A DNA stretch of 64,000 nucleotides from Candidatus Omnitrophota bacterium (GCA_014728045.1 WJMH01000015.1:22479-86478); one strand, 5' to 3'; shown: positions 28,294 to 47,600, numbered from the stretch's first letter. Notes: generated by a model from the sequence alone, not told the origin. A program made the numbers and translations.

Positions 28294-31200
28294 TCATGCT
28301 CTGGCCAGCATGGTCTTGATGCTGTCCATCAGATCCCTGAGCCTTTCCTTGTCCAGCTCCTCGGCATCCGGGACGAGCTTTATGACCACCATCCTGTCAC
28401 TTCCGAAAAGCATGCGGCACTCCTCCGCGGAAAGGTCCCTGGAGGAGACGACATTGGGTATCATCCGGTAATTGCGCTTGAGGGTCTCCGGATCCCACTG
28501 CAGGTACTTGCCGATCGCGAAGAGCATTATGTCCAGGAGAGGCAGGTATGCCGCCTCCGGGAATTCACTATCGTCTATCCCCGCTATCACTGACCTCCCC
28601 TGAAAGGAGCTGTAGTAGGCGGTGTTCTTATTGCTGGTAATGACAATGAGGTTGTCCGGGTCCACCGCTCCTTTGGAAGGATCGGTTATGTTCGAAACCC
28701 GGCGGGCCAGGTTGCGGCCCTCTCCCTTTATGATCTCCAGATTCTTGAAGAACCTTTCCAGGTCCTCGTTGTTATCCACTATCGTCGGCAGGAATTTAGC
28801 CAGATCCCTCAGGCAGTCGTTTATCTCGCCGCTTCCCAGGTCGAGATCAAGGGCCAGCACGACCCTTTCCTTTTTGCTGATAGCGGCTATGAGCGCGTTC
28901 ACGAAGGAGGGGATAAGCTTCTCGAGGTCCGGCACCGAACCCGTGCCGCTACTTATACCCTCTTCGATACCGAAAAGGTCCCTGCTGAGTGCCTCGTGTA
29001 AAGTGTCTATATACTCACCCGGCGCCAGCGCATCTTTTATGTGTTCGTAATCGGGAACATATCTTGGATATTTGTCAGAAGGATCTGGTATATGTTTCTT
29101 AAGTCCTTCTGCAAGGGACGGCGAGATGTCCGATAAAAAGACGATCTTGCCCGCGTGCTCAGGGAATTCCTTTTCGAGAGTCTCGGCGATGAAGCCGGAA
29201 GGAGCCACGATGAATTCGGAACCCTCGGCGGTCCCGGCCGTTATCTGCCTGGTGAGGAAATCTTCGACGAATCCGGGGGCCATCCCCTTCCGGATGCAGG
29301 CTGTGACCAGCTGCCTGTGGGGTTTACCCGAAGAAGGATCGGCCACGCGCAATCCGCAGGATAAGGCGTTTACATTGCTGAAGACGGGATTACGGGATAT
29401 GATATCCTTGGCTATGACCTCCATGAGGAAGCTTCTCTGAGCGTTAAGCACGCAGGTAAAAAGGATATCCGCCCCTTCCCCGTTAGCGAGCTTCTCTTTA
29501 AGCCGTGCCGCGTTCCTGGCGGACCTGATAGAAAGGTCCTCGAATTTTTTCACGGGTATGTCCTCGCTCTCGGATACTTCGAACTTTATGGGTATGTGCC
29601 TGGTCTTCCCGGGATCATCTTGCGGTGATCTGTCTTTACCGGCATCGGCCAGAGAGGCGGGCGCGTAATCGGGATTATCTACCGTGGGGGTATCCCCGTA
29701 TACATCCTGGTTGATGTTCTCGTGACGCAAACGTGCCATAGCGTAGGAAATAATGTTAAAAAGCACCGTCGTGACTACAAGCGCCCCCGCAGGCCACTGG
29801 ACGTGCGCGGAATGCGCAAGTCCGCCACCGAGCATGGAAACGATCATCAGGTTGAAGCCGGCAACGTAAACAGGCGCTTTGTAAGCGTACTTGAGCCGGC
29901 CCCATAAGGTCTTGCCCTTCGGCGCCCTGAAAAGGTTCGGGGTATGAAGCGCTACGAACAGAGCATACATTCCCGACATGCCGGCTATAAGGGTGAATAT
30001 GCCTATGACGCTGGCCGATACGAGCGAAGAAAGTACGGCAAATGGAAGAAGCGTGAAGATCCTCTCCTCCACCCTCGGCCCGACCTCAAGGGAATATTCC
30101 CACATGGCAAGGTCAGGATCGACTATCCTCTTAAGCAGCCTGACCGTCGCCGGGGCCGCGCTGTTAAAAGTGCCGGGTTTCTCATCCGAACTGATGGGTC
30201 CGGCGGCCACGGCATCGTTATTGACGTTCTCGTGGCGCAGAAGCGCCATCGCGTAGGATATAATGTTAAAAAGCACCGTCGTGAATATCAGTGCTCCCGT
30301 CGGCCACTGGGCGTGCGCGGAATGCGCAAGTCCTCCACCGAGCATGGAGACGATCATCAGGTTGAAACCGGTGACATATACAGGCGCCTTGAAGGCGTAC
30401 CTGATCCTCTCCCAAAGGCTGCTGCCTTTGTGGGCCCTGAAGATATTGGGCGTATGCATGGCCACGAAGAGCGAGTAAACAGCAGCCATGCCGATTATCA
30501 GGGTGCCTATTCCTATCACGCTGGCGGATACCAGCGAGGAAAGAACGGCAAAGGGAATTAGAGTGAAGATCTTCTCCTCGGTCCTCGGTCCGGCCCCTAT
30601 CGCGTACTGCCAGAAAGAGGAATCCGGGTCGACGATCCTCTTGATAAGATAAACGGCCGATGGTGCGTTACCGGCACCCTTCTCGCCCTCGGGGTTGAAG
30701 ATATCACCCTTGAGCGTCCTTCTCTGGGTGGCTTTAAAGATCAGTTCCTGGGTAAGCTTGTACCTGAGGCTGTTTATCTCCTTGAACCTCCTGCGATCGG
30801 TATTGGTAAGCTCCCCTACGCCGACCATCTCCCGGGGCAGGATCTCCTCTATGGGCTTTCGGGCCTTCATGTCCTGTTCTCTCAGCTTAAGAGAGGTCTT
30901 GTACTTTTCCAGAGCCGAATCAAAGTTCTTGACGTAATGTTCCGCTATTCCGTAGCTCAGGTAGTATTCCTTGACCCTGGGGTCACCCTCGGGCAGCATG
31001 TTCACGGCCTGCTGGAAAGCCTCCAGGGCTGCATCGTGAAAATGCCAGAAGAATTCGGCCCTGGCGAGCGTATAATGATCGGCGGCCACGTCGCTTCCGT
31101 TCATCTGTTTGCTCTTGACATCATCCCTGACTATCAGCAGCGTAAGGTACTGCCTGACTTTAAGGAAGCTGCCGGGAGCGATCTGGCAGAACTCCGCGAT

Positions 31201-33828
31201 AAGCTGGTTTATGGCGAGCATCTCTTTCCTGCTCTCCTCGCCGGTGGAGCGGGAAGCTATCCTCTGGGAAACCTCCTGAGCTATCTCCTGCAGGGCCCGG
31301 GCCAGTTCCTCGTAATCTTCCGAGACCCAATTCTTCAGCCTCTGTATCTCGAAATTGAGGCTGAAACCCCATTCAAGTTCGCGCAGGATGCTGAAAACTA
31401 TGGGACGAAGTTCTTCCTTGATCTTTGAGATGTCACCGGTGTAATTCCTTGAATCAAGCCTGAAGACCGCGTCCAGCACGTTACGGGTATCAAGGGGAGG
31501 TTCTGCGGCGAGGATCCTGTCTTTTTTCTTTTTGTCCTTTTCTCCGGAACTGCCGGTTTCCTTCCCGGCGTCCTTCTGGCGGACCCCGAACATGAGCTTG
31601 ATCATCCTCATTATGTACTGCAATAGATCGAACGATATATGCACGGCCCGGTAGGCGTATTTCATGGCCTTTATCGCTTCTTCCCGCTTTTTCGGATCGT
31701 CCATATCTTTTTCCTCGGGTTTTTTCTCTTTCTCTGGCTCATCAGGCTTTTTGACCTCTTCTGCCGCCCTCGCGCGGGAGCTCATCTTTTTCCTGTTAGC
31801 GATGAGCCTTACCATTACGACCACTGCCAGAGAAAGGCCGAACCACGGTATCGGCAGGAACATGGAAAGCCCTACAGATATTATGACAGTAAGTCCCGCG
31901 ACCAGCAAGAAATTCTTCCATCCCGTCCAGTTCTTTATAAGAAGCGCCGCGAAAAGCGTGACCGGAACGACGATAGCTATACCCACGGTGATGATATTTA
32001 CCGGCATCACCATGTAAAGTATACCTGAAAGAAGAAGAGCGCTCGTGAAAGTGATCAGGACGCTCTTCCAGTTTATCGCTCTGACCCTGTCCCAGAAGGA
32101 AAGTCTTATCCTCAAGGAGGCCTCTTTCTTTTCGGGGCTATCTTCTTCGGGGGCCTTTTCTTTCTCAGGCGCCTTAGCGCTTTCCGAGGACGGTTTCTCT
32201 TCAGCGGGGCTTTCTTCGGTGCCGAGTATGGCACGCAGCTTGCTGATAACGGCCCTTATGCCTTCATCCTCCTTCAAAAGGTCAGAGGCGGAGTTCTTTT
32301 TCATGAAGCTTTCATGCTTTGCGAGAAGCTGCTGTATAACCTCCCTCAGCTTCTCCATCTCATCCGGCGTGAGCTTATCGTCCATGCCTTTCTGTCCGAG
32401 TATCTTCGTGCCCTTTTCCCAGGCGACTTCCATCTCCCAGATCCAGCTGAGCCTTGCGAAAATATACCGGTACTCTTCCGCGAGCGCTCGGAGCGTCTTC
32501 ATAGCCATCTTGCGGCTACCCGGGAAAAGACGCGACTGCTTGAGCATGTACTGGCGCTTGATCCATTCGAAATACTGCTTATATAAGGTAAAGAAATGCG
32601 AGGCATCCTGAGGTCCCGTCTTCTTGAGGAAATCCTGCTGCTTGAACTTCTCGAGCTGTTCGCCGATCTCGGTGCTGCTTCTGGCCTGGTCCGGGAACGG
32701 GTCACACCTGTCCCAGAGGACGTTTTTGAGCACGATGGAGAGTTCCCCGTCCCGGTGTCCCGCGATGCGGTCGCCTTCGATCGCCTCGTAATTCTCCGGG
32801 AAAAGCTTCACCTGTATGGCACGCGCCCTTTCATGCCCGAAATAAGGACATATCATTTCGTGAAAAATATATTCCTGCAGCAGGGGTTCGTCCATCTCTA
32901 TGAGGTCCAGTACCTGCGTGCAGAGTCCTATTGTATCGGGATAATCATCTTTCAGTTTCGAGAAAAGCGTATCGATCGGTCCGGTGTGGGCAGTAAACCC
33001 CGTCAGTTCGACGCCGGACCCTGAAGTGGTATTGAACCCGAGAAGCCAGTTATGGGGCCTGGTCGGCTCCTGCCTGTCGGTCAGGACCACCGCGCTGAAC
33101 TCAAGGAACTTTGAAGATGCGGAAAGTTCCACGACCTGCTGCAGTTTCTTTCTGGTCCACGCGTCTATCTGAGCTTTCTGTATCCTTTTGTCGAGCTTCT
33201 TCTCAATCCCTTTGACCCGTTTGATCAGGCGGTGCCTCAGATCCGCCGGCGGATTGACGTTCTCGACCAGAGCTTCATGTATCCGGTGGGCTTCATTCTT
33301 GTTCTCGACCCTGGTGACGAACCCGCGTTCGTCAGGAGGCTCGAGTACCAGCTGCCGCATCAGGTATTCGCCTACTTTCTCCTGGCTCTGGACTTGGCAA
33401 GAAGAACCCGGGTCACTGGACCCGGGTATTTTAGGGTTGAAATATCTTATCCTGTAAGGACCGATCCCGATCGATACCTCACCGGAGGCCTCTGAACCGG
33501 TAACGAGCGGCCACCGCTGAAGGAATCCCGCCGGGATGTTCTTGGTGTTTTTTACCTGATCAAGCGCCAGCTGCGCGCAATCCTTTATACTGAACAGGTT
33601 CCGGTTGGCCGGATCGGCCTCGAATGCAATAAGCGCGTCGATGACATACCTGGTCATCACCATGAAATAACTTTCACCCTGCTTGGAAGGATCAAAGAAT
33701 GTCTGCGGCTGAAGATCGCTTTTCCGAGTTATATCCGGATTGGCCCACACCACCCCCTGCCATACCAGGAGGATGCAAAGAACGAACGCTATTGATCTTA
33801 CAGATTTATTTTTTGATAATTCCCTCAT
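28294..33828 (-). CDS. giant polytopic membrane protein A (about 1844-1861 aa), function unknown
   Basis: Uninterrupted 5.6-kb ORF. I place the start at the first ATG, 33828 (MRELSKNKSVRSIAFVLCILLVWQG.., a signal peptide); the track begins at TTG 33879. Domain order is: N-terminal periplasmic-type domain, multi-TM region including an internally duplicated 170-aa TM module, a CX5R(S)..DP low-molecular-weight PTP-like module, and a ~190-aa C-terminal domain shared with gene A' (44681-48589). Ends with a double stop TGATGA. Confidence 0.85.
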   Translation of the reverse strand: MRELSKNKSVRSIAFVLCILLVWQGVVWANPDITRKSDLQPQTFFDPSKQGESYFMVMTRYVIDALIAFEADPANRNLFSIKDCAQLALDQVKNTKNIPAGFLQRWPLVTGSEASGEVSIGIGPYRIRYFNPKIPGSSDPGSSCQVQSQEKVGEYLMRQLVLEPPDERGFVTRVENKNEAHRIHEALVENVNPPADLRHRLIKRVKGIEKKLDKRIQKAQIDAWTRKKLQQVVELSASSKFLEFSAVVLTDRQEPTRPHNWLLGFNTTSGSGVELTGFTAHTGPIDTLFSKLKDDYPDTIGLCTQVLDLIEMDEPLLQEYIFHEMICPYFGHERARAIQVKLFPENYEAIEGDRIAGHRDGELSIVLKNVLWDRCDPFPDQARSSTEIGEQLEKFKQQDFLKKTGPQDASHFFTLYKQYFEWIKRQYMLKQSRLFPGSRKMAMKTLRALAEEYRYIFARLSWIWEMEVAWEKGTKILGQKGMDDKLTPDEMEKLREVIQQLLAKHESFMKKNSASDLLKEDEGIRAVISKLRAILGTEESPAEEKPSSESAKAPEKEKAPEEDSPEKKEASLRIRLSFWDRVRAINWKSVLITFTSALLLSGILYMVMPVNIITVGIAIVVPVTLFAALLIKNWTGWKNFLLVAGLTVIISVGLSMFLPIPWFGLSLAVVVMVRLIANRKKMSSRARAAEEVKKPDEPEKEKKPEEKDMDDPKKREEAIKAMKYAYRAVHISFDLLQYIMRMIKLMFGVRQKDAGKETGSSGEKDKKKKDRILAAEPPLDTRNVLDAVFRLDSRNYTGDISKIKEELRPIVFSILRELEWGFSLNFEIQRLKNWVSEDYEELARALQEIAQEVSQRIASRSTGEESRKEMLAINQLIAEFCQIAPGSFLKVRQYLTLLIVRDDVKSKQMNGSDVAADHYTLARAEFFWHFHDAALEAFQQAVNMLPEGDPRVKEYYLSYGIAEHYVKNFDSALEKYKTSLKLREQDMKARKPIEEILPREMVGVGELTNTDRRRFKEINSLRYKLTQELIFKATQRRTLKGDIFNPEGEKGAGNAPSAVYLIKRIVDPDSSFWQYAIGAGPRTEEKIFTLIPFAVLSSLVSASVIGIGTLIIGMAAVYSLFVAMHTPNIFRAHKGSSLWERIRYAFKAPVYVTGFNLMIVSMLGGGLAHSAHAQWPTGALIFTTVLFNIISYAMALLRHENVNNDAVAAGPISSDEKPGTFNSAAPATVRLLKRIVDPDLAMWEYSLEVGPRVEERIFTLLPFAVLSSLVSASVIGIFTLIAGMSGMYALFVALHTPNLFRAPKGKTLWGRLKYAYKAPVYVAGFNLMIVSMLGGGLAHSAHVQWPAGALVVTTVLFNIISYAMARLRHENINQDVYGDTPTVDNPDYAPASLADAGKDRSPQDDPGKTRHIPIKFEVSESEDIPVKKFEDLSIRSARNAARLKEKLANGEGADILFTCVLNAQRSFLMEVIAKDIISRNPVFSNVNALSCGLRVADPSSGKPHRQLVTACIRKGMAPGFVEDFLTRQITAGTAEGSEFIVAPSGFIAETLEKEFPEHAGKIVFLSDISPSLAEGLKKHIPDPSDKYPRYVPDYEHIKDALAPGEYIDTLHEALSRDLFGIEEGISSGTGSVPDLEKLIPSFVNALIAAISKKERVVLALDLDLGSGEINDCLRDLAKFLPTIVDNNEDLERFFKNLEIIKGEGRNLARRVSNITDPSKGAVDPDNLIVITSNKNTAYYSSFQGRSVIAGIDDSEFPEAAYLPLLDIMLFAIGKYLQWDPETLKRNYRMIPNVVSSRDLSAEECRMLFGSDRMVVIKLVPDAEELDKERLRDLMDSIKTMLARA
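29690..30665 (-). repeat. intragenic tandem duplication (2 x ~510 bp) inside giant gene A
   Basis: Two DNA copies offset by 510 bp (for example GTTCTCGTGACGCAAACGTGCCATAGCGTAGG at 29716 versus GTTCTCGTGGCGCAGAAGCGCCATCGCGTAGG at 30226). They encode two ~150-aa TM modules (RIVDPD..FAVLSSLVSASVIGI..GFNLMIVSMLGGGLAHSAH..FNIISYAM) about 75-80% identical. Confidence 0.8.
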
Positions 33829-33879
33829 ATCGACAATACCTACACCTACCCCCCCGTAGCCTTTTGTAAGCTTTAACAA

Positions 33880-34070: not shown

Positions 34071-37000
34071 TTAGAGCGATACCGCGACCGCTTCCTGCAT
34101 CATCTGCCAGTCGCGTATCTGCTCGTAATCTACAGCGCGTATCTTCAGAAAGAGCTTGTCCAGTAAAGTATTGATATCCTCTACCCCGGCAAGCTGATCG
34201 GCAGCCTCTTTTCCGGAGATACGTGTAAGAAGGTCCTTGATATAATCAATACCCATACGCCTGGCATCCGGGTTGGTAGCGTTAAGACAGAATGCTATCT
34301 GCCTGGCGAGAACGAACCGCACCGCTATGTCCGGGGGCCTCATTCTCCCCGTCTCCGGGTCCAGACCGTCGGTATAGGCATCTTTTACGAAGGTTACGTT
34401 CTCGTTGGCTCTGTATTCCTTGAAGAGATCGTTTTCGTTCACCACCTCTGCCATCTCGAGGCCTTCCATCTGGGGTGTGTATGAAACTATCCTGCCGCCT
34501 TCGGGCAGTGTCCGGGTCGCCCTCTCAAGTGCCTTAAGGTATTCCTTGGCCGTCGCGTCAGTGTCACCGGGTATTATCTTATAGGTTATTATCTGCTGGT
34601 TATCGGGTTTTTCACCGAACTTTGCCTTGAGTTCGGAGTTCATTTCACGCACGCCGCTCTCAACGCTCTGGTACGTCTGGTGGTCTTCCAGGTTGTACAC
34701 CACCCCAACGACCATCCGCACCGGGTCGCTCCTTCTTTCGATCTCTTCTCCCGCGCCTATCGCTAACACCTGGCGCGTTGCGGCATTGTCCCCTTGAGGG
34801 GCTTCACCGGTCTCGCCGGACGCTACCATCTCGGCGGCTTCGCCCGGCATCATGCCTATTTCGGTGAGACTTGCAAGCTGGAATTTACGCGCTTCCATGT
34901 TTATGAAGTTGCGGAACTTGTCCTTCAGGGTGTTCCTTCCGAAGATCTTGCCCTGAAGAGAATTTGCCCTGTCGGTCTTACCGTAGATCTCCTCGTGACC
35001 GTAATCCATCTCATACATCTCATGAAAGATGAATTCTGCCAGCTCCATCTCATCAAGCGTCTCGACAAGTTCGGCTGAAAGGCCGATGTTCCCTGCGATG
35101 GCCGGATCAAGCCCGGGGTCGTCGCCCGTATTGAATCCCAACAGATAATTCTCTTCGCCTTCCACCTTGGCGTTGAAGAGGTATATGTTATTGATAACCG
35201 CGGATCTGTGCAAAGCCCTTTCCTCGTCCCCCATCTCAAGGTCGCCCACCATGTTCTCTACCAGAGCCATCAATCCCGGGTCATTATCCGGAAGGCCCCC
35301 TGACCGCATCTTCTCATAGAGCTTATTGAAAGCGAGGTTGATCTTGGTCCGCATGGCCTGGGTCATGTCCATCTTCTCACCCACCAGGTCCTTCAGTTCC
35401 TTTTCGGTACGGACCTGGTCCATTCTATCGGCAAGCTCGCCATGACCCACCATCACTTTGGGGATCTTCACCTGCGAGGCGGGGGCCACCTTATCGCGTA
35501 TGGCTTCTGTCTGCTGTTTGAGATCCGCTATAGCTCTGGTCACGGGGTCTATGTCACCTACGCGGTAGGGCTGGTACGGTTTGCCGGCGTCTCGCAAAGC
35601 CTCAAGATGGGCTTTCTCCAGGCGGACCTGAACCGCCCTGAACAGCTCCGGATTCGTCATTTCAAGCTCCTGGAGTCTTTCGGATTTGGCGCTGTCGGGA
35701 CCCATAGCGACATTAAGGTAGTTTTCCAGCATCTTTATCATTTCGGTATTCTCAATCCCCTGATCCACCATAGGCTGATCCATTATCTCCTGCTGGTGAC
35801 GGTACTGGGTGAGGTCGACTATCCTCTCGCGTGTCGCACCCAGCACCTTAAGCCCCTTATCGACAGCCTCCCTGTTCATTCCTCTCAGTTCAGCTGCGGG
35901 GTCCTGTATCCCGGCGTCTCGCATGGAAAGCTGAAGGGTCTTCTTCCCGGCGTCGGTTTTCACGAAATTATCGTACTCCTCCACCGCTAGTCTGTCCGTC
36001 ATACCTTCCAGACGCCTTTTCCAGCCGTTGGGCAGACCGAACTGGCCCTTTTCAAGCTGGGAATCCATCTGCTGTTCGGTAAGTTGTACCGCCCTCAGAA
36101 CGAGCGGCAGGTTCGAATTGAAAAAGTCCAGCCCTTCTCCTCTGTATATGTCAAATCCGTATCCCCCGTCCTCCACGCTCTTTTCCAGATCACCAAGTGC
36201 GGCGATCACCTGATCCGGGCTCAGCCTGAGAGAATATCTGTTCAAGCCTATAAGGCTCTTGTTCAGAAAAGAAAATACCTGGGGCGTACTGCTGGCGACG
36301 TTCACAGCGAGACGCCTTATGAGAGTAACTCCTATACTGCCTTTCAACGAATCAAACCCATAGTTTTCGCCCTTCATCTCATCCAGCATCTTCCGGCTCT
36401 GGGCTTCGTCCAGCCCCATTCCCTTGAGCCTGTTAAGTTCTGCCAGCATGGCGTTATGGACCTCGTTCACTGTCTCGGCCATCTCGGGCGCGTCTTCCTC
36501 CTGGGCCTGGCGTATTATCTCAAGAGCTTCTTCCAGGGTGGAGGCATTACCGAACGCCTCTTTCAGTAAAGCGTCCTGCCCGGAAGTAAGGGTAAGGTAA
36601 TTGGTCTGGAGACCGTATTTATCGATGATCTCCTTGCGGGCATCAACCGTACTCGGGTTGCTCTTGAATAGATACACCGGAGCCTTATCACCGTAGATAT
36701 CGACCCCCCAGCTCACTAGCTTGTTCACAAAACTTTTCAGAGTGGCATAACCGCCTTCTTCGGCATACCCGCTGAAAGGCTTGACCTCCCGTCCGGTCAG
36801 GGACTGAATCGCTTCTTCTGTGGAAGTGGAAATATCATAAGCTCTCTTCCTGGCCATCCTCATATCCAGTTCATTGCTACTCAAGGCTAGCATGTTAAGC
36901 CCCCTGCCGAGAAATATATCATAACCCAACCTGTCCGCAAGGTTTATGCGTTCTTTCAGTTCGTTTATATCAAGGACTGAAAGTTCCCCGCCCAGATCCG

Positions 37001-40000
37001 TGGACGGGTCTATCTGAAGAGCCCTCAGGATGGTCTCTGCCTCTTCGGCACTCTGCACATATTCTCTCCTCGTTCTTTCGAACTGGCTGACCCTTTCCTG
37101 GAGGTCCATGTATTCCTTTTCAAGTTCGGCCGCGTCCTCCCTGACCTGGAGCATGTCAATGATGCCCCTGGCCCTCTGGACCATGTTGTCAAGAACCGTA
37201 TCCGCTGCCATCTGCGTCACCGTGGCCAGCTCGCCCCTGTTGAGAGCTCCTCCTTCCTCTATTGCGGTACGCATTATCCTGTCCGCCCTTGCGATTGAAT
37301 CACGGGCTATGGCCGCGTTCACCTGGTATTGGTTCTTTGCCGACTCGATCTGTTGCTTTATATCGCGTCCCAGCTGATCTTCTCTGTTAAGAAAATTCAT
37401 AACTTCTTTTTTCATGCGACTGGTGGCAGCACTGTCCTTATTGGTCGCATCCGTTATCCTTGAAAGCATCTCCTCGAGCCCCTCCTCTCCGAAATAGCCC
37501 TGGTAGGCTTTATGCAGGGAGAGGAGGTCTTTGGTCCTTCCGTACTCGTCAAGATCAGCCTGCACGCTGTCGAAGGCCTTCCTCAAGACCGCCATATCTA
37601 TCATATGAAGAAGCCTGGGGTCACCGCTGTCAATGGCCTCATCCCGACCCGCAGCCATGTCCATCATTAGCCCCATGACCCTCTGGAATCCCTCTCTGTC
37701 GGCGGCGCGTCGCTGGTCCGCCTCAGCCTGGGACTTTTCATAAGCTACCCTTAACCCCCCCGGCAGTGCCGCCAGCTCTTTCTCAGAGGGCCTCTCAACG
37801 GGCAAAGTGTACCTCCTGAACGAGCCCCAGTCCTTCGCGGCCAGCCCCTTTTCGATAAGCGCCTCAGAGAACTGTTCGGAGAACCTTATCCGGTTGACGT
37901 CCTGCTCCAGCTTGGCGATCTCATGCTCGTATCTTTGCACCTTGTCCGGCCCCAGGAAATCGGAACTATCGAACTGTATAAGATATGTAAGCCCCTTGGC
38001 CCTTGCCTGGCTGAAGGTCTCCCCGAACCGGTCATGGAGCGGAAGCTTGTTGTATACATGTTCCTTCCCCAGAGACCTGTCCATCCAGTAATATACTCCC
38101 AGCATTTTGAGCAGCGCGTCCCTCAGCGCGGGAACGGCCTCCTCCGCTTCGGCGAGCATGCGCGAGTACTTGTCCACCCACGCTTGTTCCTTTTCAGCGG
38201 TCCGTATCCTTGCGCGGGTCCTCTCTACCCGGTTACGCAGGTTCCTGGCCCGCTGTTCCATGACCTCGTAGAGCATTCTCTCAAAAACCTTCGTTGCCTT
38301 GGCCAGAACGATGGGCTTGCGCCAGGGATGCAGGCTCAGGCTCCCGAACTGATCCCGCCAGGGCCCGGGCTTATCGGCAGAGCCCTGCATGCTCCAGGCG
38401 AGCCTGTTGACGTTGGAGATGGCGTCTCCGTAATTATCGATTATCTCCTGCACATCGGCGCTCCTGGAATCCATATCTTTAACGCTCTCTGCCGCGGCGG
38501 CAAGAAGGGCTATCCTGCCCGATGTATTCTTGTACTTATTGCCAACGAGCATCTCCAGCTGTTTTTCGAGATATTCAAGCTCCCTGTCGTTCATCTCATC
38601 CAGGGACCTTACGCGCATAAGGTCCTTCCGGCTGGTCGCCGGGCTTTCAGCGGCCAGCCTGCTTAGAACACCTCTGGCCGTCTGCATTTCCTGGGGCGTG
38701 GCCGGAAGAAGCATATCCACGGCCATTTCGTAAGGATATGACTCGGCGGGAATTATTTCAGGCTCCAATATACCCTCGGCGGGTTCGGTCTCGGCCAGCT
38801 CGATCTGGTTCACTTCATCGAGGGAGATAACGTTCATGAACCTGTCGGCGACCTCGGCCGGACCACCCAGATTCTCTGAAAGCGCTTCCATCTCGTGGTC
38901 GCTAAGTCCGAAATAGAGTTTTACCACCTCAACCAGGTCCTGTGCGTTATCATATGTACCCATCAGGTTGAAAGCTTCCCTGCGCGCGCGTACCATTGCC
39001 CCGACAAGGTTCTTGGCGTTCTTTGCCTGCTCGGTATTGACTTGGACCGCGCGGGTTATTTTCATGACAAGGCCTTTTTTACCTATCTGGTCGCCCGGCT
39101 TGACCGAATCATCTTTACTCCCGTAGGGCTCTGCGGTTATCTTCTTAAGATGCTTGTCAGCGAGGTTCTCGCCAAAAAGAGCCTTGAACTCTTCATCGGA
39201 ATAGCCCCTTTCCTGGACGACGGACATGGTGACGTCCGTTACGCGCCCGTCCTGGACATCCAGGTCGAACTCGACCTGGCCCAGACGGAAAGCTCCCGCG
39301 TTATACGCCGCGAGGCTCATGCCCGCGGTCATTATGTTAAGATCGTTCATCACCGTGTACTTGTAGGTCTGGGCTTCCGCCGGCGTAAGGCGGTCCTCAC
39401 CTGGCTGCCGGGCGGCCCGTTCTATATTATCAATCATCTGCTCCCTGATGCCTTCCAGGAGCCTCGCGTAAAGCCCTTTATTGAGTTTCCCGTCTATCGT
39501 ACACAGCTGGGCCAGTTCGTGGAGTTTGCCCAGAAGACCGTTATTGGCAGGAACACGCGTGAACGCGTCCATGAACTTTTCCGCGGCGGCCGTGTTATCG
39601 GCTACTTCCGTCATGGTCATTACCGCCGCTTCCGGGGTAGAGAAATCCACACCGGTATAATCATGAAAAGCGATGTTATCGGCGATCCTTCTCTTCCCGT
39701 CCGCCCCGAAAAGACCTGTGAACAGGCTGTCGGCATCCTCGGTATTCAGATATTTGGTCGCCGCCGCTCCGTGACCGGCTTTAAGGTCCTCTACATCACC
39801 GAATATACCCAGCCCGGCGTTGGCGTTCCTGATATTGCCGGCCATCGCGTCATGCATCATAAGGGCCACCCTCGCCTCAAGCAAGAGTTCCGGCGTAATG
39901 AAACGGCTTTCGTATTCCTCCTGGCTTATCCTGCCGGCCTTGCGCGCCTCGGCCAGTTCAGCGTTATAGCTTCTGGCCATGGCATCCACCTTGTCGGAGT

Positions 40001-43000
40001 TCATGATCGCGTGTATCGCGCCGTTGGAGCCCCTTAACCTGTTACCTCCGGAACCGTAAGCGAGACTTACCGTGACGGGGTTGCCGTCGGCGTCGGTCAC
40101 GACACGCCCGTCTTCATCGGTCACGGCGACTTCCTGGACGCCCCCTTTCTGCAAAACGTACATATTGAGAGAGTAACTGAGTAGATCCACGAACTTCCTA
40201 ACGTCACTTTCCCGGAGGGGCTTGTCCATGCGGCCCATGAGGTAGAGGTCTATCATCCTTTCGAGGGATTCCCTGATCATGTACCCCTCGTCACGGGCGG
40301 TCCGGTCGTATCTTAACAGCCCCCTTGTATCATATATATTGAGTATCCCGTCTATAGAAGTGGCGAGCGCGTTCTTAAGACCCTCCAGGTTCTTCCTTCT
40401 TTCGCCGGCACGGTCGAAGAGCTCAGAGTCCCTTCTGACCCGCCGCGCTATAGCATCGCCGTAGCCTATCGGCATCATCTGCAGCTTCTTCTGGAGGTCC
40501 TCTATCTCGCTTTCTTCGGTCATTTCAACGTTGATCAGAGTATTGAGCGTCTTGAAATCAAGTTCATCTTTTTTGATATCGACACGCGAAAGCGCAGGAT
40601 CCGTTATCCGGGACCTGTTGACCCTGAAAGCGACCTGCTTCTTTTTTTCATCCATCAGGTCCTTGAGTATGGGAACTATAGACTTGCGGTAGGCGGTCTC
40701 CAAAGCCTCCATGAGCTCGCTGAGATCAGCGGCTCCCTTTTCCATCAGTTCCTCTATCCGGTCTATCGCCTCGTCCCTCCTCTTTTTATCCTTCTCGTCC
40801 CTGAACCTGGTCTTTTTAACCTCGTCCAGGGCTTCCTGGAGGATGGACTCAAGTTCCTCTCCCGAAGGCATCCTCTCCACCGTTACTATGCCTTCGGATA
40901 TCAGACTCTCCAGAGCCGAGAACTGTTCCCGGCCTATGGGGCCCACCACCGAGAACTTGGCGGAATGTGTCTCCCGGCGTCTTTGTTCCTGACGGTCTTC
41001 CACGACTGCGTCTATGGCCTCGAAAAAAGCCTTCTCAAGATCAGGCCTTCCCTTGAAGGCCTCATCCAGGGCGTCTTCTGTCATGACAAGAACCCTCATC
41101 GGGGTATCGGCGACGACATCAGCGTTCCTGCGCGTCCTGTGTACCAGAGCTATCTCGCCTACCATCTGCCCGGCGCCGTTATCCGTCTGGAAGACGGTGT
41201 TCTTGGTCCTGCTCCCTATGAGCGGATAATCCACCCTGTACCCCCCAGAAAGCACGAAATACGCGGAATTATCATCCGGAGTTCCCGCCTTGATAAAGGT
41301 CTCCCCGGGCTGTATATATGTAACGCCCAGGTTTTCGCTCATTCTTCTGACGAGTTCATCACGGTCTTCCCGGGAAAGCGAATTGAAAAAGACATTGAGA
41401 TCAGAACCTTCTACCTGAAAAGCATTCTCTATGACTTCAAGGGATTCACCGTAATCGACGACCCCCATCCTGTTCCTGCCGCTTGCCAGAAGCTGTTCCT
41501 GCTCGCGGGAGAGGCCCCGGTCACGCACCAGCCGCTGAAGGGCATCCGCTATGTCCTGCGCCGCGTCGATCTTGCCGTCCTGGAAACTGCTCCTCAGCCT
41601 CTCAAGCGAAGTGGATAATTTGCTTATCTTGACCGGGCTGAGCCCGGGCCGGTTCTGCCTGCCCTCGGCCATGGCGGGAAGGATATCTTCCTTTACACGG
41701 GCGATCTCAGAGGCTATCTCAGCGTCGTTCAAAAGCCCCTTGACCATGTCGCCTATCTCCATGCGCGTGTTAAGGAAGAAATCATCCAGCTCCTTCTGTA
41801 TTTCGGCCTTTCTCTCCTTCTGGAACTGTGAACTGAGTGAATTCACCGTTCTCTGGAGTCCGTTCAGGAAGTTTACCAGGCCCACAAGTTCGTCAGCGGC
41901 TTTCTGTTTGTCATCCTCTTGTCTAAGTCTGCGCGCCAAGGTATATACCAGGTTACTGGCGGTGGATGAAGCAAATGAATCGATCTTGTCGGAGTATCCT
42001 GTCATCGCGTAATCATCCAAGGTGCGGCAGAGACTTTTTGCGGAGGTGATCAGGCCCTCGCTCTCCAGCTGGCGCCTTATAGCGGGCAGCATCTTTGAAG
42101 TAAGCTTAAGACCTCCTTCCAGAGGCGCGGTATAGTCCCTGTCCACTTCGAGCCTTTCTTCGGCTTCCATCTGCCAGACGGCGGCGGTCACCAGTTCACC
42201 CGCCTCATCCGGTTTCTTAAGCGGAGTCTCATCCGCGAGAAGTTTATCCCGCCTGTCATTAGCGCGATAGGCCTGTTCAACCTGCTCTGCGAGTATATGG
42301 TCGCCGTAGATGCCGCCGACTATTTCATGGAGGATAACGCTTCGCCCGTCCCTGCCGATCCTGCCGTCCGCGTTCTGGTACTTTGCGTTTATGCGTATAC
42401 CGTAACCGCCCGGAGTACCTTCGAAATTCACCCCTTCAACTGTACGTACAAGGGGAAGTCCCGTGAGAACACTGTTGCCGGTAAGTCCTTTTACTATCTC
42501 TTCGACATCAGGGGAGATGCCCATCGCTTCGAGAAAGGGAAGCAGGTCGTTATTTATTATATCGTCAAGTTCCCCTTCGGGGATGTCCTTGAAGCTTTCG
42601 GGAGCCTGCAGGCTAATAGCTTCCATCTGCTGGTCTGTCTCGCGTTCATGTACCCGGTGGAGGAGTTCCCGGAGGGGCATGGTAATGGGCCTTCCCTTCT
42701 TCATCCTGAGGACAAGATCCTCTCCCTTTCTTTCGATACCTACGATCTCGTTGCCCTCGGCGATAGCCTTCTGGTTCTGGGTGACCACGATCACGGCCGC
42801 CTTGAAAGCGTCTATGCTCCTTCGATCCCATACGTCCTCTCCCAGCGGAGAGAGAAAACTCGCCACCTGTATGAGTGAAGCCTCGCTCAGGATCCGGTAC
42901 ATCTTCTCGTAGGTGCCGGAGATCTTCCCCGAAAGAAGGTCGAAATACGGGCATTCGTACCCCTTTTCGTTCTTGAAGTCCGGAATTATCGAAACATAGG

Positions 43001-44489
43001 ATATATCCTCCTGCTTATACAGGTCACAGAGGTTCTCCGTGTGGAAACCTCCCGTTACGACTATTGCGGCCTGTTTCCCGCGGTCGGTGAAATTTATGTT
43101 CTCCAGGAAAGCTTCGTCCCTGCCGAAAGAGTATTCGTAGAAACGCTCAAGATCGGCGCGGTATCTGTCAAGTTGCCGGGACTCTTCGGGCGAGCGGACG
43201 GAGATATTATAAACGGGGGCCTTCTCATCTATAAAGGAAGAAAAATTATTTACCCTGAAAGCGTCCCTGTTCTGCTTGTAATACTTGTAATCCTCTTTGG
43301 TCAGGCTCAACGCGAAAAGGTTCTTCATCAGGGTAAGATTCCTGGAAAGCCCGTTAAGGCGCCTCTGTTCATTGTTCTGGTAAAGATTGGATTTAAGATC
43401 CGCTTCTATGCGGTCCATCTCCTCCATCACTGCGAACCTGTCCGCAGCGTGGTAAAGGGTAATATAAACTATATATTTCTGGAGGTCGGGATATTCATCC
43501 AGCGATATATCGGCGAGTTTGGCCTTTTTTACCAAAAAATCATAGAACTCGAACTGTGATATCTTTTTAACCTTGAAGTCTATGGTCTTCATCACCAGCT
43601 CATCAAGCGCCTTCCTGGAAAGCATTCTCTCGAGCTGGTCAACAAGAAGATCCCTCTGCGTGTTAGCCGCCTGGAAGTCAATGCCCCCCTCCTGGTTCAG
43701 GGACTGGTAAAGCAGGTAGATATTGGGATAATCCTTGGGATCTATCATCTGCTCTTTGGCTTTCTGCATGAGAAAGCTTAAGTAGTCCTTGAACTGAAGC
43801 TCCCCCTGTTTGTAGGCTTCGTATCGGGTATCCACTTCAAGAAGCTGGGGGGTATAAATGCTCTTTTTAAGAAGGTCCATAACCCGGCTTATGCCCCCCA
43901 AGAGCTCTTTCGCCTGTTCCTTGTAATCCTCCGACTCCCAATAGACCGAGATATTGTTCATGTAAAGGACCGGGTCTTCTATTCCCCAGAGCCTGACATC
44001 GAAGGGATGGTTGACCGCATAGTATTCAGGACCACTTACAAGTCCCTGTTTTACAAAGTGGTCCGCGACCTTCTCGCGTATCACCCTGTCGGCAATACCG
44101 GTAAAAATAGATAGATCGTATTCCCCGACACCGCCTTCAAGATTGATATCGGTAATACCGTATTCTTTTACAAGATAGGAGATTATCTCGGATATCTTTT
44201 TCTGAGCGCCGTAGTTACAATGCGCATCCTGTATGTGGATTATGAGTTTATCGGAATCGGCATTATGGGTGAATTTCATGGTCCCCAGATGCTGAGGAAC
44301 GGTAAAGGTCTCAACGTTAAGTGGGGCGAACTGCTGCTCAGGCGCGCTCAATACGGAGAATACCGGTTCGGGCACCTCCGCAACAGCACCAGCATCTTTA
44401 ACGGAAAAGCTAGTCATGAAGACTACTATCACGATCAGTGAAGTGATCTTTTTCGCGACCGTATGTGCTTTTTTAATGCCCCATAACAT
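34071..44489 (-). CDS. giant secreted/anchored acidic helical protein B (3472 aa) with embedded cNMP-binding-like segment, function unknown
   Basis: Uninterrupted 10.4-kb ORF. ATG 44489 is preceded by AGAGAGGA with 5-nt spacing. N-terminal signal/anchor (KKITSLIVIVVFMTSFSV). Segment aa ~1025-1160 matches the CAP-family cNMP-binding pattern (..GETFIKAGTPDDNSAYFVLSGGYRV..GQMVGEIALVHRTRRNADVVADTPMRVLVM). C-terminal region has an NYLLGFNT..IFHEM..GHE module shared with gene A. Confidence 0.85.
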   Translation of the reverse strand: MLWGIKKAHTVAKKITSLIVIVVFMTSFSVKDAGAVAEVPEPVFSVLSAPEQQFAPLNVETFTVPQHLGTMKFTHNADSDKLIIHIQDAHCNYGAQKKISEIISYLVKEYGITDINLEGGVGEYDLSIFTGIADRVIREKVADHFVKQGLVSGPEYYAVNHPFDVRLWGIEDPVLYMNNISVYWESEDYKEQAKELLGGISRVMDLLKKSIYTPQLLEVDTRYEAYKQGELQFKDYLSFLMQKAKEQMIDPKDYPNIYLLYQSLNQEGGIDFQAANTQRDLLVDQLERMLSRKALDELVMKTIDFKVKKISQFEFYDFLVKKAKLADISLDEYPDLQKYIVYITLYHAADRFAVMEEMDRIEADLKSNLYQNNEQRRLNGLSRNLTLMKNLFALSLTKEDYKYYKQNRDAFRVNNFSSFIDEKAPVYNISVRSPEESRQLDRYRADLERFYEYSFGRDEAFLENINFTDRGKQAAIVVTGGFHTENLCDLYKQEDISYVSIIPDFKNEKGYECPYFDLLSGKISGTYEKMYRILSEASLIQVASFLSPLGEDVWDRRSIDAFKAAVIVVTQNQKAIAEGNEIVGIERKGEDLVLRMKKGRPITMPLRELLHRVHERETDQQMEAISLQAPESFKDIPEGELDDIINNDLLPFLEAMGISPDVEEIVKGLTGNSVLTGLPLVRTVEGVNFEGTPGGYGIRINAKYQNADGRIGRDGRSVILHEIVGGIYGDHILAEQVEQAYRANDRRDKLLADETPLKKPDEAGELVTAAVWQMEAEERLEVDRDYTAPLEGGLKLTSKMLPAIRRQLESEGLITSAKSLCRTLDDYAMTGYSDKIDSFASSTASNLVYTLARRLRQEDDKQKAADELVGLVNFLNGLQRTVNSLSSQFQKERKAEIQKELDDFFLNTRMEIGDMVKGLLNDAEIASEIARVKEDILPAMAEGRQNRPGLSPVKISKLSTSLERLRSSFQDGKIDAAQDIADALQRLVRDRGLSREQEQLLASGRNRMGVVDYGESLEVIENAFQVEGSDLNVFFNSLSREDRDELVRRMSENLGVTYIQPGETFIKAGTPDDNSAYFVLSGGYRVDYPLIGSRTKNTVFQTDNGAGQMVGEIALVHRTRRNADVVADTPMRVLVMTEDALDEAFKGRPDLEKAFFEAIDAVVEDRQEQRRRETHSAKFSVVGPIGREQFSALESLISEGIVTVERMPSGEELESILQEALDEVKKTRFRDEKDKKRRDEAIDRIEELMEKGAADLSELMEALETAYRKSIVPILKDLMDEKKKQVAFRVNRSRITDPALSRVDIKKDELDFKTLNTLINVEMTEESEIEDLQKKLQMMPIGYGDAIARRVRRDSELFDRAGERRKNLEGLKNALATSIDGILNIYDTRGLLRYDRTARDEGYMIRESLERMIDLYLMGRMDKPLRESDVRKFVDLLSYSLNMYVLQKGGVQEVAVTDEDGRVVTDADGNPVTVSLAYGSGGNRLRGSNGAIHAIMNSDKVDAMARSYNAELAEARKAGRISQEEYESRFITPELLLEARVALMMHDAMAGNIRNANAGLGIFGDVEDLKAGHGAAATKYLNTEDADSLFTGLFGADGKRRIADNIAFHDYTGVDFSTPEAAVMTMTEVADNTAAAEKFMDAFTRVPANNGLLGKLHELAQLCTIDGKLNKGLYARLLEGIREQMIDNIERAARQPGEDRLTPAEAQTYKYTVMNDLNIMTAGMSLAAYNAGAFRLGQVEFDLDVQDGRVTDVTMSVVQERGYSDEEFKALFGENLADKHLKKITAEPYGSKDDSVKPGDQIGKKGLVMKITRAVQVNTEQAKNAKNLVGAMVRARREAFNLMGTYDNAQDLVEVVKLYFGLSDHEMEALSENLGGPAEVADRFMNVISLDEVNQIELAETEPAEGILEPEIIPAESYPYEMAVDMLLPATPQEMQTARGVLSRLAAESPATSRKDLMRVRSLDEMNDRELEYLEKQLEMLVGNKYKNTSGRIALLAAAAESVKDMDSRSADVQEIIDNYGDAISNVNRLAWSMQGSADKPGPWRDQFGSLSLHPWRKPIVLAKATKVFERMLYEVMEQRARNLRNRVERTRARIRTAEKEQAWVDKYSRMLAEAEEAVPALRDALLKMLGVYYWMDRSLGKEHVYNKLPLHDRFGETFSQARAKGLTYLIQFDSSDFLGPDKVQRYEHEIAKLEQDVNRIRFSEQFSEALIEKGLAAKDWGSFRRYTLPVERPSEKELAALPGGLRVAYEKSQAEADQRRAADREGFQRVMGLMMDMAAGRDEAIDSGDPRLLHMIDMAVLRKAFDSVQADLDEYGRTKDLLSLHKAYQGYFGEEGLEEMLSRITDATNKDSAATSRMKKEVMNFLNREDQLGRDIKQQIESAKNQYQVNAAIARDSIARADRIMRTAIEEGGALNRGELATVTQMAADTVLDNMVQRARGIIDMLQVREDAAELEKEYMDLQERVSQFERTRREYVQSAEEAETILRALQIDPSTDLGGELSVLDINELKERINLADRLGYDIFLGRGLNMLALSSNELDMRMARKRAYDISTSTEEAIQSLTGREVKPFSGYAEEGGYATLKSFVNKLVSWGVDIYGDKAPVYLFKSNPSTVDARKEIIDKYGLQTNYLTLTSGQDALLKEAFGNASTLEEALEIIRQAQEEDAPEMAETVNEVHNAMLAELNRLKGMGLDEAQSRKMLDEMKGENYGFDSLKGSIGVTLIRRLAVNVASSTPQVFSFLNKSLIGLNRYSLRLSPDQVIAALGDLEKSVEDGGYGFDIYRGEGLDFFNSNLPLVLRAVQLTEQQMDSQLEKGQFGLPNGWKRRLEGMTDRLAVEEYDNFVKTDAGKKTLQLSMRDAGIQDPAAELRGMNREAVDKGLKVLGATRERIVDLTQYRHQQEIMDQPMVDQGIENTEMIKMLENYLNVAMGPDSAKSERLQELEMTNPELFRAVQVRLEKAHLEALRDAGKPYQPYRVGDIDPVTRAIADLKQQTEAIRDKVAPASQVKIPKVMVGHGELADRMDQVRTEKELKDLVGEKMDMTQAMRTKINLAFNKLYEKMRSGGLPDNDPGLMALVENMVGDLEMGDEERALHRSAVINNIYLFNAKVEGEENYLLGFNTGDDPGLDPAIAGNIGLSAELVETLDEMELAEFIFHEMYEMDYGHEEIYGKTDRANSLQGKIFGRNTLKDKFRNFINMEARKFQLASLTEIGMMPGEAAEMVASGETGEAPQGDNAATRQVLAIGAGEEIERRSDPVRMVVGVVYNLEDHQTYQSVESGVREMNSELKAKFGEKPDNQQIITYKIIPGDTDATAKEYLKALERATRTLPEGGRIVSYTPQMEGLEMAEVVNENDLFKEYRANENVTFVKDAYTDGLDPETGRMRPPDIAVRFVLARQIAFCLNATNPDARRMGIDYIKDLLTRISGKEAADQLAGVEDINTLLDKLFLKIRAVDYEQIRDWQMMQEAVAVSL
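41010..41417 (-). other. cNMP-binding (CAP effector)-like domain inside giant protein B
   Basis: See gene B. The pattern G-E-[IL]-A-L..R[RT]A-[DT]-V-[VI]-A with the preceding beta-roll glycines is characteristic of cyclic-nucleotide-binding folds. Coordinates are approximate, derived by residue counting. Confidence 0.45.
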
Positions 44490-44680: not shown

Positions 44681-47600
44681 TCAGGCCCTTGCCAGCATAA
44701 GCTTGATATTCTCCATTATATCCCTGAGTCTTTCTATCCCAAGGCTGGTAGCATCCGGGATAAGACGCAGCACCATGGCTGACCTTGTCTCCCCGAAAAG
44801 CAGATCGCGTTCGATCATGCTAAGCTCATCATAAGAAATAACATTGGGGATCGTCCTGTAGCATTCCATCAATGTTTGCCTGTCCCATCCCAGATGTCTG
44901 CCAATGGCAAAAAGCATGGTTTCAAGTACCGGCAGGTAAGCACCTTCCGGAAGGTCCGAAGAATCTATACCGGCAAGAGTAGCCCTGCCCTCGAACCTGT
45001 CGTAATACTCCAGGTTATTCTTGCTTGTTAGAACTATCAGGTTCTCCGGATCCACCGAGCCTTTTTCCGGATCGGTGAGGCTCTCCACCCTCCTGGCAAG
45101 TATCCCGCCTTCGCCTTTTATTATCTCAAGGTCCCTGAAGAACCTCTCGAGATCCTTATTGTTCTTCTCAAGATCGGGAAGAACTTCCAGTATATCCCGC
45201 ATGATGGAATTCACCCGGCCTTCGCCTATATCAAGATCCAGCGCGATCAGCACCTTTTTCTCTTTTCCGGAAAAAGCGAAAAGCGAATTCACTATCTCGT
45301 TTATAACCCTTGATGCGTTCCGGATGATGGAGGCGGCAAGGGATCTGCTTGAAGCCTTCTGTTTCTCCTCGGCCCTGCGGATCTTGCCATACTCAACGGG
45401 ATAGGCGTATCTGGCAAGTTCCAAAGCCCTCCGGGATGTCTCCGGGCCGGAAAAACACATTGAAAGAACCGACTGCTTTACGGACTTAAAATCCCCTCTA
45501 TATGCCTGGTCCAGTATCCGCTGCACCTCTTCGGGGAAAATATGCGACCTGATCCTGTCGATATGCGCGTCAACCAGATCCCGGAAACGTTCGTGAATAT
45601 TACCGTTTACCAGCCGGACCACGTCATTTGCCTCCGGATCGTCCCTGAGACCGGTATCGATGGTCTCGAGGGCGGTACTGACAAGATCGGTATTCAGCAC
45701 GTAACGGCCGAGGAATTCATCAAGCTGCACGTTTTCAAGCCTGTCCATATTGACCTTGCCCACAACCAGGTCTTCCCTGTAAAAAGCACCGATCTGCTCT
45801 TTCATGTCCAGGTATATCTTTTCCAGCTCTTTGTCGGTTATCCCGTATCCATTCGTGCTGGCGCTGGACGCCGTCACCAGATAGAACGCCATGGCAAGTT
45901 TTCTCTTCATCAACGCGTTGGAACCGATCAGGAAGAACTTTGTCTGGGTGCCCCCGGTCGCGGGGTCGTCCCCGCCAAGGCGTTTTCCCGTCCATGGGTC
46001 TATGGCGTAACCCTTTCTTCCGGCGGCTATCCAGGGCTTGCCGGGGACTTCTCCCGACGAGGTCCTGCTTACCGGGCGGGCGCCTGCGAAATACATAAGA
46101 GAAAAAAGAAACAAACCTTCGCGCATATGGTCACCGGATACGGTTATCCCGAAATCCCTTGCATCTATTATGCGCATGTTCTCGAGCTGGCCGGCGAACA
46201 GGAGCATGACCGGATACGGGGCGGGCGGGAGCCTTATGATCCTTTCACCGTTATTCTTCAGCACGGACCTATCCAGCTCATGTGGCGTCCTGGTCCGGGA
46301 TATGTAATTGACAAGCTTGGCCCTGAGGCTGTGCTCGGCGTCCACAGCCGACAGAAGCTCCCTGCCGGACCTGTGATAATCAAGCCCCATTGCCGGATAA
46401 TCCTTCGAGATCTTTTCAAGAACCATTAGCCCGGGTATGACCTCTTCTTTCAATCTCGCGATAAATCTCTCTGAGATCTCTTCTTTTGAGGCGACTTCCT
46501 CCAGTAGCAACAGCTTCACGTATGCCTGCGCGCCTATTGAAAGAGCCGAAAGGTCCAGCAGGTCATATGTCTCATCCACAATCCGCATCAGATTTTGACC
46601 GTTCTCACAAAGACGCTGGTAAAGTGGCACATCCGGAGTGTTCGAAGAAAGCTCGGCTATGAGATCCCTCTCAGCTTTCCTGCAGAACTCAAGGGCCTCT
46701 TTTTCGTCCATATCCAGGCCGAACTGGCCGAAGTAACGCAATGTACCTTCGAGGTTCTCCCCGGCACAGGCTCGCGCAACGGATTCGGCGTGCCTTCTGC
46801 CTCTGAGACCGAATTTCCTGAAATTGACCGCGGTGGACCTGCCGTTGTGACGCGCGCAGGATAATGCTAAATTCAAAATGACCTCCTGGTGGTGTTCCTC
46901 ATCAAATCCGAAATTCCGGAAATTCACGGCCACGCTCTCCGGGCTCTCGCGTGAGGCTATCTGCGCTATACCCGAGACCTCTCTGAGCTCCTTACGGGAT
47001 GCGGTGGGGTCAAGACCGAACTGGTCGAAATACAGCGCTACGCCGTGTCCGTTCTGCATCGCCGAGAGCGTGGCGATCTTCACGGCGTGAGATCTCTCAA
47101 CCAGGCCGAATCTTTTGTAATGCCGGGAAGTGCTCTCCCCGTCGCAGGAAGCGCAATGCTGTGCCAGGTCCAGGATGAGGTGCTCATGGTGTTCCGCATC
47201 AAATCCGAAATTCCGGAAATTCATGGCTGCATGACCGGCGGCGACATTTATGCATAAGAGCGCGATCTCATGGACTGTCTCCGGGTATCTGTACGGATCA
47301 AGGTTGAACTGGGAGAACGACTCAACAGTCTTCCTGGGAGACTGCCCCGCGCTCTTTAAGGCTAATCTGGCCCTGAGAGAAGCATATTCGTGCTGATCGA
47401 TATCGATACCGAATGTGCTTTTGGTAACTTCCTTGATACGGGGGTACTCTCTCGCGATAAGTCCGCCCTCTGGCACCAACCCCATAACGAAACCTACCAG
47501 GTCATCATCCCTGCCCCTCTTGAAGAAAGATGCGTACATTCCGTCCATGCCGGATCTGCGCAGAAAAGCCACCATAAGATTTACGAATAAGTGCCATCCC

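Follow-up and report, generated by a model that had tools for sequence, protein, structure and literature searches.

A divergent module of the LMW-PTP / YwlE fold in the tail of a giant membrane protein from Candidatus Omnitrophota

Introduction

Does the C-terminal tail of a giant membrane protein of Candidatus Omnitrophota hold a real phosphatase domain, and would such a domain be active? The question is raised by a stretch of DNA of 64,000 nucleotides (GCA_014728045.1 WJMH01000015.1:22479-86478), which was analysed over its whole length and is here called the window. Its minus strand encodes protein A, in whose tail an earlier note on this DNA had described a C-X5-R-S motif, followed at a distance by an Asp-Pro pair, and had likened the region to low-molecular-weight protein tyrosine phosphatases (LMW-PTPs) and to ArsC. 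Here we show that protein A has, at amino acids (aa) ~1450-1636, a true though divergent domain of the LMW-PTP / YwlE fold. We further predict that the module is an active, membrane-tethered cysteine phosphatase, a reading to which we assign a probability of about 0.65.

Omnitrophota are uncultured, ultra-small, possibly predatory bacteria, and to our knowledge their giant proteins are almost entirely unannotated. Two preprints on these giant proteins were consulted and do not mention the Pfam family LMWPc, and no link between LMWPc and Omnitrophota was found in the literature searched. The LMW-PTP enzyme family itself is textbook matter; the interesting parts are the variant phosphate-binding loop (P-loop) and the architecture, in which a cassette stands before a shared C-terminal domain (CTD).

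Fold of the module

The two features on which the analysis is based are the following, with positions counted in the window.

28294..33879, minus strand: protein A, 1,861 codons counted from a TTG; from start-codon context the likely start is the ATG at 33828.
28972..29532, minus strand: LMW-PTP-fold module, aa 1450-1636, with a leading helix, four beta-strands and flanking helices.

The suspected LMW-PTP module was borne out by profile searches. The Pfam profile LMWPc (PF01451) matches protein A with 28.2 bits when the whole protein is scanned (E 2.6e-6) and with 30.8 bits when the tail is scanned alone (E 4e-7); the curated gathering cut-off is 23.2 bits. The match spans aa 1472-1614 and covers profile positions 1-132 of 144. 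A phmmer search of PDB with the single sequence returned YwlE of B. subtilis as best match (E 5e-4). The profile of alignment A1, which comprises 11 modules (eight embedded in giant proteins and three canonical LMWPc repeats of the protein P0009), found YwlE over its full length among the PDB sequences at E 2e-27, a value somewhat inflated by the three canonical repeats. Of the other module-bearing proteins that were scanned, all but P0010 also exceed the LMWPc cut-off, and the relatives reach 24.7-29.3 bits. A six-frame scan of the whole window with the hidden Markov model (HMM) found the module once, and C-X5-R occurs a single time in the 1,861 residues of A. The interval first proposed, 29050-29500, lies within the module, the full domain being slightly larger (28972-29532).

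An AlphaFold model computed from the 11 sequences of A1 has a mean predicted local distance difference test score (pLDDT) of 92.9 and a predicted template modelling score (pTM) of 0.90. In the model, strand beta1 (residues 21-27) stops at Cys1476, a loop of five residues follows, and helix alpha1 starts from Arg1482; pLDDT is 97 in both 10-residue blocks around the P-loop (model residues 21-40). Read from secondary structure and pLDDT, Cys1476 and Arg1482 are predicted to stand in the strand-loop-helix order of a P-loop, the geometry that the earlier note had expected. The best 50 matches of a Foldseek search against PDB are all LMW-PTP, YwlE or Wzb, each with probability 1.00. The model has a four-stranded parallel beta-sheet with flanking helices and superposes on solved LMW-PTPs at 2.0-2.6 A over ~145 residues.

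Relatives of the module

Relatives are rare. An exhaustive phmmer search over 1.84 billion representative proteins returned only seven, with E values from 4e-36 to 1e-4, and all seven sit inside proteins of 634-4,110 residues. A word-indexed search with the module alone returned nothing; with either the whole tail or the CTD profile as query it returned CTD matches only, its recall being poor. Scans with a module pattern of genome-contig collections (GTDB representatives included) and of metagenome-contig collections gave no relatives. To date the subfamily signature, C-x-x-N-x-x-R-S together with Phe at the column of bovine His72, is known from very large proteins only.

Several details of the relatives were recorded in passing. 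P0009, from an Elusimicrobiota metagenome-assembled genome (MAG), has 1,679 aa and, besides PEP-utiliser and PPDK_N domains, five tandem LMWPc copies, some of which show E-N-P where D-P would be expected. P0007 carries two LMWPc modules ~1,070 residues apart. The kinase-like N-terminus of P0008 gave no significant PDB or Pfam match.

Candidate catalytic residues

The predicted catalytic residues are located as follows.

29431..29454, minus strand: P-loop C1476-V-L-N1479-A-Q-R1482-S1483; C, N, R and S are invariant in 11/11 modules.
29350..29364, minus strand: L-S1507-C-G1509-L, equivalent of 'DSAG' (bovine Ser43), aligned with SAG of YwlE.
29257..29259, minus strand: Phe1541, in the column of bovine His72; Phe in 8/8 giant-embedded modules.
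29047..29097, minus strand: D-loop KHIPDPSDKYPRYVPDY, aa 1595-1611; coil in the model, pLDDT 83-91.
29083-29085, minus strand: Asp1599, candidate general acid, followed by Pro1600.
29050-29052, minus strand: Asp1610, alternative general acid, in 'VPDY'.

The three motifs named by the earlier note are present on the minus strand: ILFTCVLNAQRS with the P-loop at aa 1472-1483 (window 29431-29466), the intervening segment VADPSSGKPHRQ at aa 1512-1523 (29311-29346) and the D-loop motif HIPDPSDKYPRY at aa 1596-1607 (29059-29094). The spacing between Cys1476 and Asp1599 is 123 residues, as given there. The loose resemblance to the segment DSAGT..G.P could be placed more exactly: L-S-C-G-L (aa 1506-1510) corresponds to 'DSAG', and VADPSSGKP then aligns with FASPNGKATP of YwlE.

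The 11 aligned modules, whose host proteins are otherwise unrelated, show no exchange at five residues, Cys1476, Asn1479, Arg1482, Ser1483 and Ser1507; the column of Gly1509 is nearly invariant in A1. The canonical signature C-x-G-N-x-C-R-S is absent from A, and the relatives are equally relaxed, with L/M/A/G/F at P-loop position 3 and Q/N/E/C/S at position 6. Position 5 is Ala1480, and Ala is also found there in the five closest relatives. The second-shell network of LMW-PTPs consists of Ser19, Ser43 and His72 (bovine numbering). The column of His72 holds His in YwlE ('LNHVSS') and in the canonical repeats of P0009, so that the exchange for Phe is specific to the subfamily.

Asp1599 is most likely the general acid. 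Its column holds D/E in 7/8 of the giant-embedded modules, and the eighth has an Asp two residues further on. The Asp-Pro pair proposed as the general-acid loop of A is present there as Asp1599-Pro1600, at roughly the canonical position; in the orthologs the pair as such is not kept, and what persists is an acidic residue in or next to the column. In the HMM alignment to YwlE the Asp of YwlE falls four residues earlier than Asp1599. Asp1610 ranks behind it, since in the profile alignment this residue falls outside the D-loop, at the N-terminal end of YwlE's last helix; it is invariant only among the four closest relatives.

Proposed activity and alternative explanations

The activity, general acid, cytoplasmic location and substrate that we infer would combine as follows. 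The thiolate of Cys1476 would attack the phosphate of the substrate, which would be gripped by the backbone amides of the P-loop and by Arg1482, while Asn1479, Ser1483 and Ser1507 would keep the shape of the loop. For protonation of the leaving group the D-loop would supply an acidic residue, Asp1599 being the most likely one. The polytopic body of A would hold the domain at the cytoplasmic face of the membrane, with the shared CTD behind it. As substrate we would guess phosphoproteins, produced by those protein kinases of related genomes that have the same CTD. Sequence does not fix the substrate class, because the residues on which phosphotyrosine and phosphoarginine specificity depend are missing. 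Identity between orthologs is 36-42% in the module and 31-39% in the rest of the protein; conservation is thus alike in both, and the module is not decaying.

Several observations weigh against this reading. The P-loop CVLNAQRS is without the canonical Gly (Leu1478 in A) and the second Cys (Gln1481), the second-shell equivalent of His72 is Phe1541, the W-loop equivalent RVADPSSGKP has no aromatic residue, and the DP is followed by S-D-K with no aromatic pair behind it. The orthologs do not keep Asp-Pro and read SERER (P0004, L004), AEDIE (P0005) or PPADS (P0006) instead. The closest ortholog of A, L003:3558-8630 (JBAROK010000027.1; identity 62% in the N-terminal part and 68% in the CTD), is without the whole catalytic core, a clean gap after the preceding helix, which is kept; the module is thus dispensable. 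More distant orthologs have the module, so that parsimony points to a loss in the lineage of L003. No kinase gene, and hence no partner, was found among the open reading frames (ORFs) scanned in the 64-kb window. The canonical P0009 repeats in the alignment given to AlphaFold may also have pulled the model towards the canonical fold.

Most of these points would also fit the main rival reading, a pseudophosphatase that keeps the fold and the anion-binding P-loop but, without turnover, binds a phosphorylated protein or small molecule or acts as a scaffold. The unusual P-loop, the Phe in place of His72, the variability of the Asp-Pro pair among orthologs, the missing substrate-clamping aromatics and the loss of the module from a host protein that persists all speak for this explanation. 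We nevertheless consider it rather unlikely, since relatives of otherwise unrelated architecture all keep the Cys, the Asn, the Arg and the two Ser residues, and an acidic residue stands at or next to the general-acid column in 8/8 giant-embedded modules. Pseudophosphatases of the PTP superfamily normally lose Cys or Arg.

The label 'ArsC-like' found no support. An arsenate reductase of the thioredoxin-coupled ArsC type, or another small-molecule enzyme of the same fold, would share the fold and P-loop, but the ArsC profile matches span the N-terminal half only and are ~20 orders of magnitude weaker than that to YwlE. The relay of S. aureus ArsC consists of Cys82 and Cys89, located after strand beta3. 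The corresponding segment of A reads IVAPSGFIAETLEKEF and holds no cysteine, nor do the aligned orthologs have one there; aa 1555-1600 of A are free of Cys, as in these orthologs. No ars genes were seen among the window ORFs scanned. We therefore regard this explanation as very improbable.

Short motifs could also coincide by chance in a large low-complexity protein, and their shortness and the modest single-sequence scores (28 bits in Pfam, E 5e-4 against PDB) might be cited for this; but this explanation is refuted by the Pfam match, the exhaustive relatives search, the structure model, Foldseek, the family profile and the superposition, and deserves practically no credence.

The favoured reading remains that of an active cysteine phosphatase tethered to the membrane, and the following sections describe the protein and the locus in which it is found.

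Architecture and topology of protein A

From N- to C-terminus, A consists of a signal-anchor with a conserved cap, a transmembrane (TM) block, a TPR-like region, a duplicated membrane module, the LMW-PTP module and the CTD.

29695..30669, minus strand: tandemly duplicated membrane module, aa ~1071-1225 and ~1242-1395 by hydropathy, just upstream of the tail.
28297..28932, minus strand: CTD of A, aa 1650-1861, ~210 residues, alpha/beta, ending in ...MLARA.

Hydropathy places 3-4 TM helices of the first block at aa ~607-690. By the positive-inside rule the tail of A is inferred to be cytoplasmic, because a K/R-rich loop precedes the penultimate helix and the chain exits with RLRHEN after the last helix. 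Pkinase, HATPase_c_2, GNAT and enolase domains are also found ahead of the CTD; this speaks for a cytoplasmic location and for protein modification as a theme.

The duplicated membrane module (LIKRIVDPD...FNIISYAMA) is multi-helical, and its family match is a weak one to Pfam 'Jiraiya' only. The N-terminal cap, aa 40-185 (window ~33325-33762), begins with a hydrophobic anchor, followed by WQG(V/M)VWA(N/D)P... It is common to A, to its paralog A' and to a HEAT + enolase + CTD protein of another genome (cap at L006:8677-9144); therefore some CTD proteins have both ends in common.

The CTD and its cassettes

The CTD of A and the C-terminus of A' have 54% identity. All occurrences of the CTD among the recovered proteins and loci are in Omnitrophota-like MAGs, where it ends many unrelated giant proteins. 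These include a Ser/Thr kinase (P0003), a protein with HATPase_c_2, LMWPc and GNAT (P0005), a further one, at least 2,874 aa long, in which Pkinase, HEAT and GNAT are combined, and proteins with HEAT and enolase, HEAT/ARM, or WD40 and AAA domains. An alignment of seven CTDs was too diverse for a pattern and an alignment of four sequences was used; its pattern found 7 GTDB loci and 5 JGI loci, the latter repeating matches already seen at the GTDB loci.

Behind the last TM helix and ahead of the CTD, A and its orthologs differ. A and P0006 have the phosphatase alone there. L004 and P0004 have the phosphatase and an extra domain of ~250 residues before the CTD, for which no significant Pfam or PDB match was found, and L003 has nothing. 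The other cassettes seen before the CTD are a Ser/Thr kinase (P0003, L006) and an anti-sigma-type HATPase kinase together with GNAT and LMWPc (P0005).

A wider picture may be drawn tentatively, and we consider it rather doubtful: LMWPc would be an interchangeable cassette in an Omnitrophota-specific family of large CTD proteins, some of which also have a ~150-residue N-terminal cap in common and which would carry protein-modifying enzymes ahead of the CTD. The CTD would dock writers and erasers on a common partner, with A acting, from its anchor in the membrane, as the eraser in a phosphorylation network specific to the phylum, perhaps under the control of its cNMP-binding neighbour.

Genomic context

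The paralog A', this neighbour (giant B) and A are encoded, in this order, by three consecutive large genes on the minus strand.

44681..48589, minus strand: A', a 1,302-aa paralog of A; the common parts are the N-terminal cap and the CTD only.
34071..44489, minus strand: giant B, 3,472 aa, between A' and A.

A' was correctly described by the earlier note as devoid of the module: it gives no Pfam match, and its similarity to A is confined to the first ~150 and the last 214 residues. The sole recognised domain of giant B is a cyclic nucleotide (cNMP)-binding domain at aa 1058-1146 (window 41052-41318), so that >95% of its length is unannotated; searches for further domains in giant B or in the body of A gave cNMP-binding and TPR-like matches only. 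A short segment is common to A (aa 276-363, window ~32791-33054) and B (aa 3113-3186; BLASTP E 1e-6). It reads 'LLGFNT ... E(Y/F)IFHEM...GHE' and contains a His/Glu-rich motif.

The link of the module to the cNMP-binding neighbour is conserved gene order in at least one other genome. Directly upstream of the A ortholog P0004 there is an ortholog of giant B, the order B-then-A being kept in L001. P0006, another A ortholog, and trpE are convergent, an arrangement also found in the window, and on contig JBAROK010000027 an A-like (L003) and an A'-like gene (L005) are again found ~16 kb apart. A signalling locus that includes the cNMP-binding giant B is a reasonable but unproven proposal. The promoter and terminator scan gave a possible promoter ~100 nt upstream of A and was otherwise uninformative on operon status.

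The window is a chromosomal stretch with the housekeeping genes mnmE, purH, mgtE, era, uvrD, glycogen phosphorylase, ispH and trpE/G, and the nearest relatives of its proteins are all from Candidatus Omnitrophota MAGs. Genes for Wzc-like kinases (BY-kinases) or Wza-like proteins of polysaccharide export were not seen among the window ORFs scanned, and a search limited to the 64-kb window gave no McsB-type arginine kinase. A SpoIIE/PP2C-type serine phosphatase of 483 aa (18074-19525, minus strand), ~9 kb from A, is the only other gene of protein-phosphatase type seen in the window.

Implications

With this analysis a confident enzymatic fold and named candidate catalytic residues are assigned to one giant protein of the Omnitrophota. 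If the module is active, the sequence rules that separate active from 'pseudo' LMW-PTPs would need to be widened. The presence or absence of cassettes, and their pairing with kinases and acetyltransferases before the CTD, offer a testable entry into the signalling of the phylum.

Comparison with known systems

The best PDB sequence match to the module of A is YwlE of B. subtilis (PDB 4KK3, 4ETN, 1ZGG), considered here together with YfkJ. Common to YwlE and the module are the fold, C-X5-R-S with an Asn in position 4, and S-x-G, and in both a D-loop Asp-Pro follows the Cys at a similar distance. YwlE is a free-standing protein of ~150 residues with the P-loop CTGNTCRS, whereas the module of A, with CVLNAQRS, is part of a membrane protein of 1,861 residues and has ~7 extra residues between DP and the last helix. 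According to a passage of PMC7772506 that cites Fuhrmann 2013, Thr at P-loop position 5 confers phosphoarginine specificity; A has Ala1480 in place of this YwlE-type Thr.

In the phosphotyrosine LMW-PTPs (bovine and human ACP1, E. coli Wzb, M. tuberculosis MPtpA), Ile at position 5 favours phosphotyrosine (PMC7772506), and Ile/Val at this position clamps the phenyl ring together with the aromatics of the W-loop and of D-P-Y-Y (PMC7772506). In A the Ile of position 5, the W-loop aromatic and the D-P-Y-Y pair are missing, and His72 is replaced by Phe.

ArsC of S. aureus pI258 and of B. subtilis resembles the module in fold and P-loop, but its Cys82/Cys89 disulfide relay is absent from A and the profile match is partial and weak.

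Further parallels are the large multi-domain LMWPc proteins P0007 (3,313 aa), P0010 (4,110 aa), P0005, P0008 and P0009, whose host architectures are unrelated to that of A. The repeats of P0009 differ in being closer to the canonical type, with the His kept. The LMWPc-bearing large proteins have, like A, a C-x-x-N-x-x-R-S P-loop in which neither the Gly nor the second Cys is obligatory, and P0004-P0008 and P0010 share with A the Phe at the His72 column and the acidic D-loop column.

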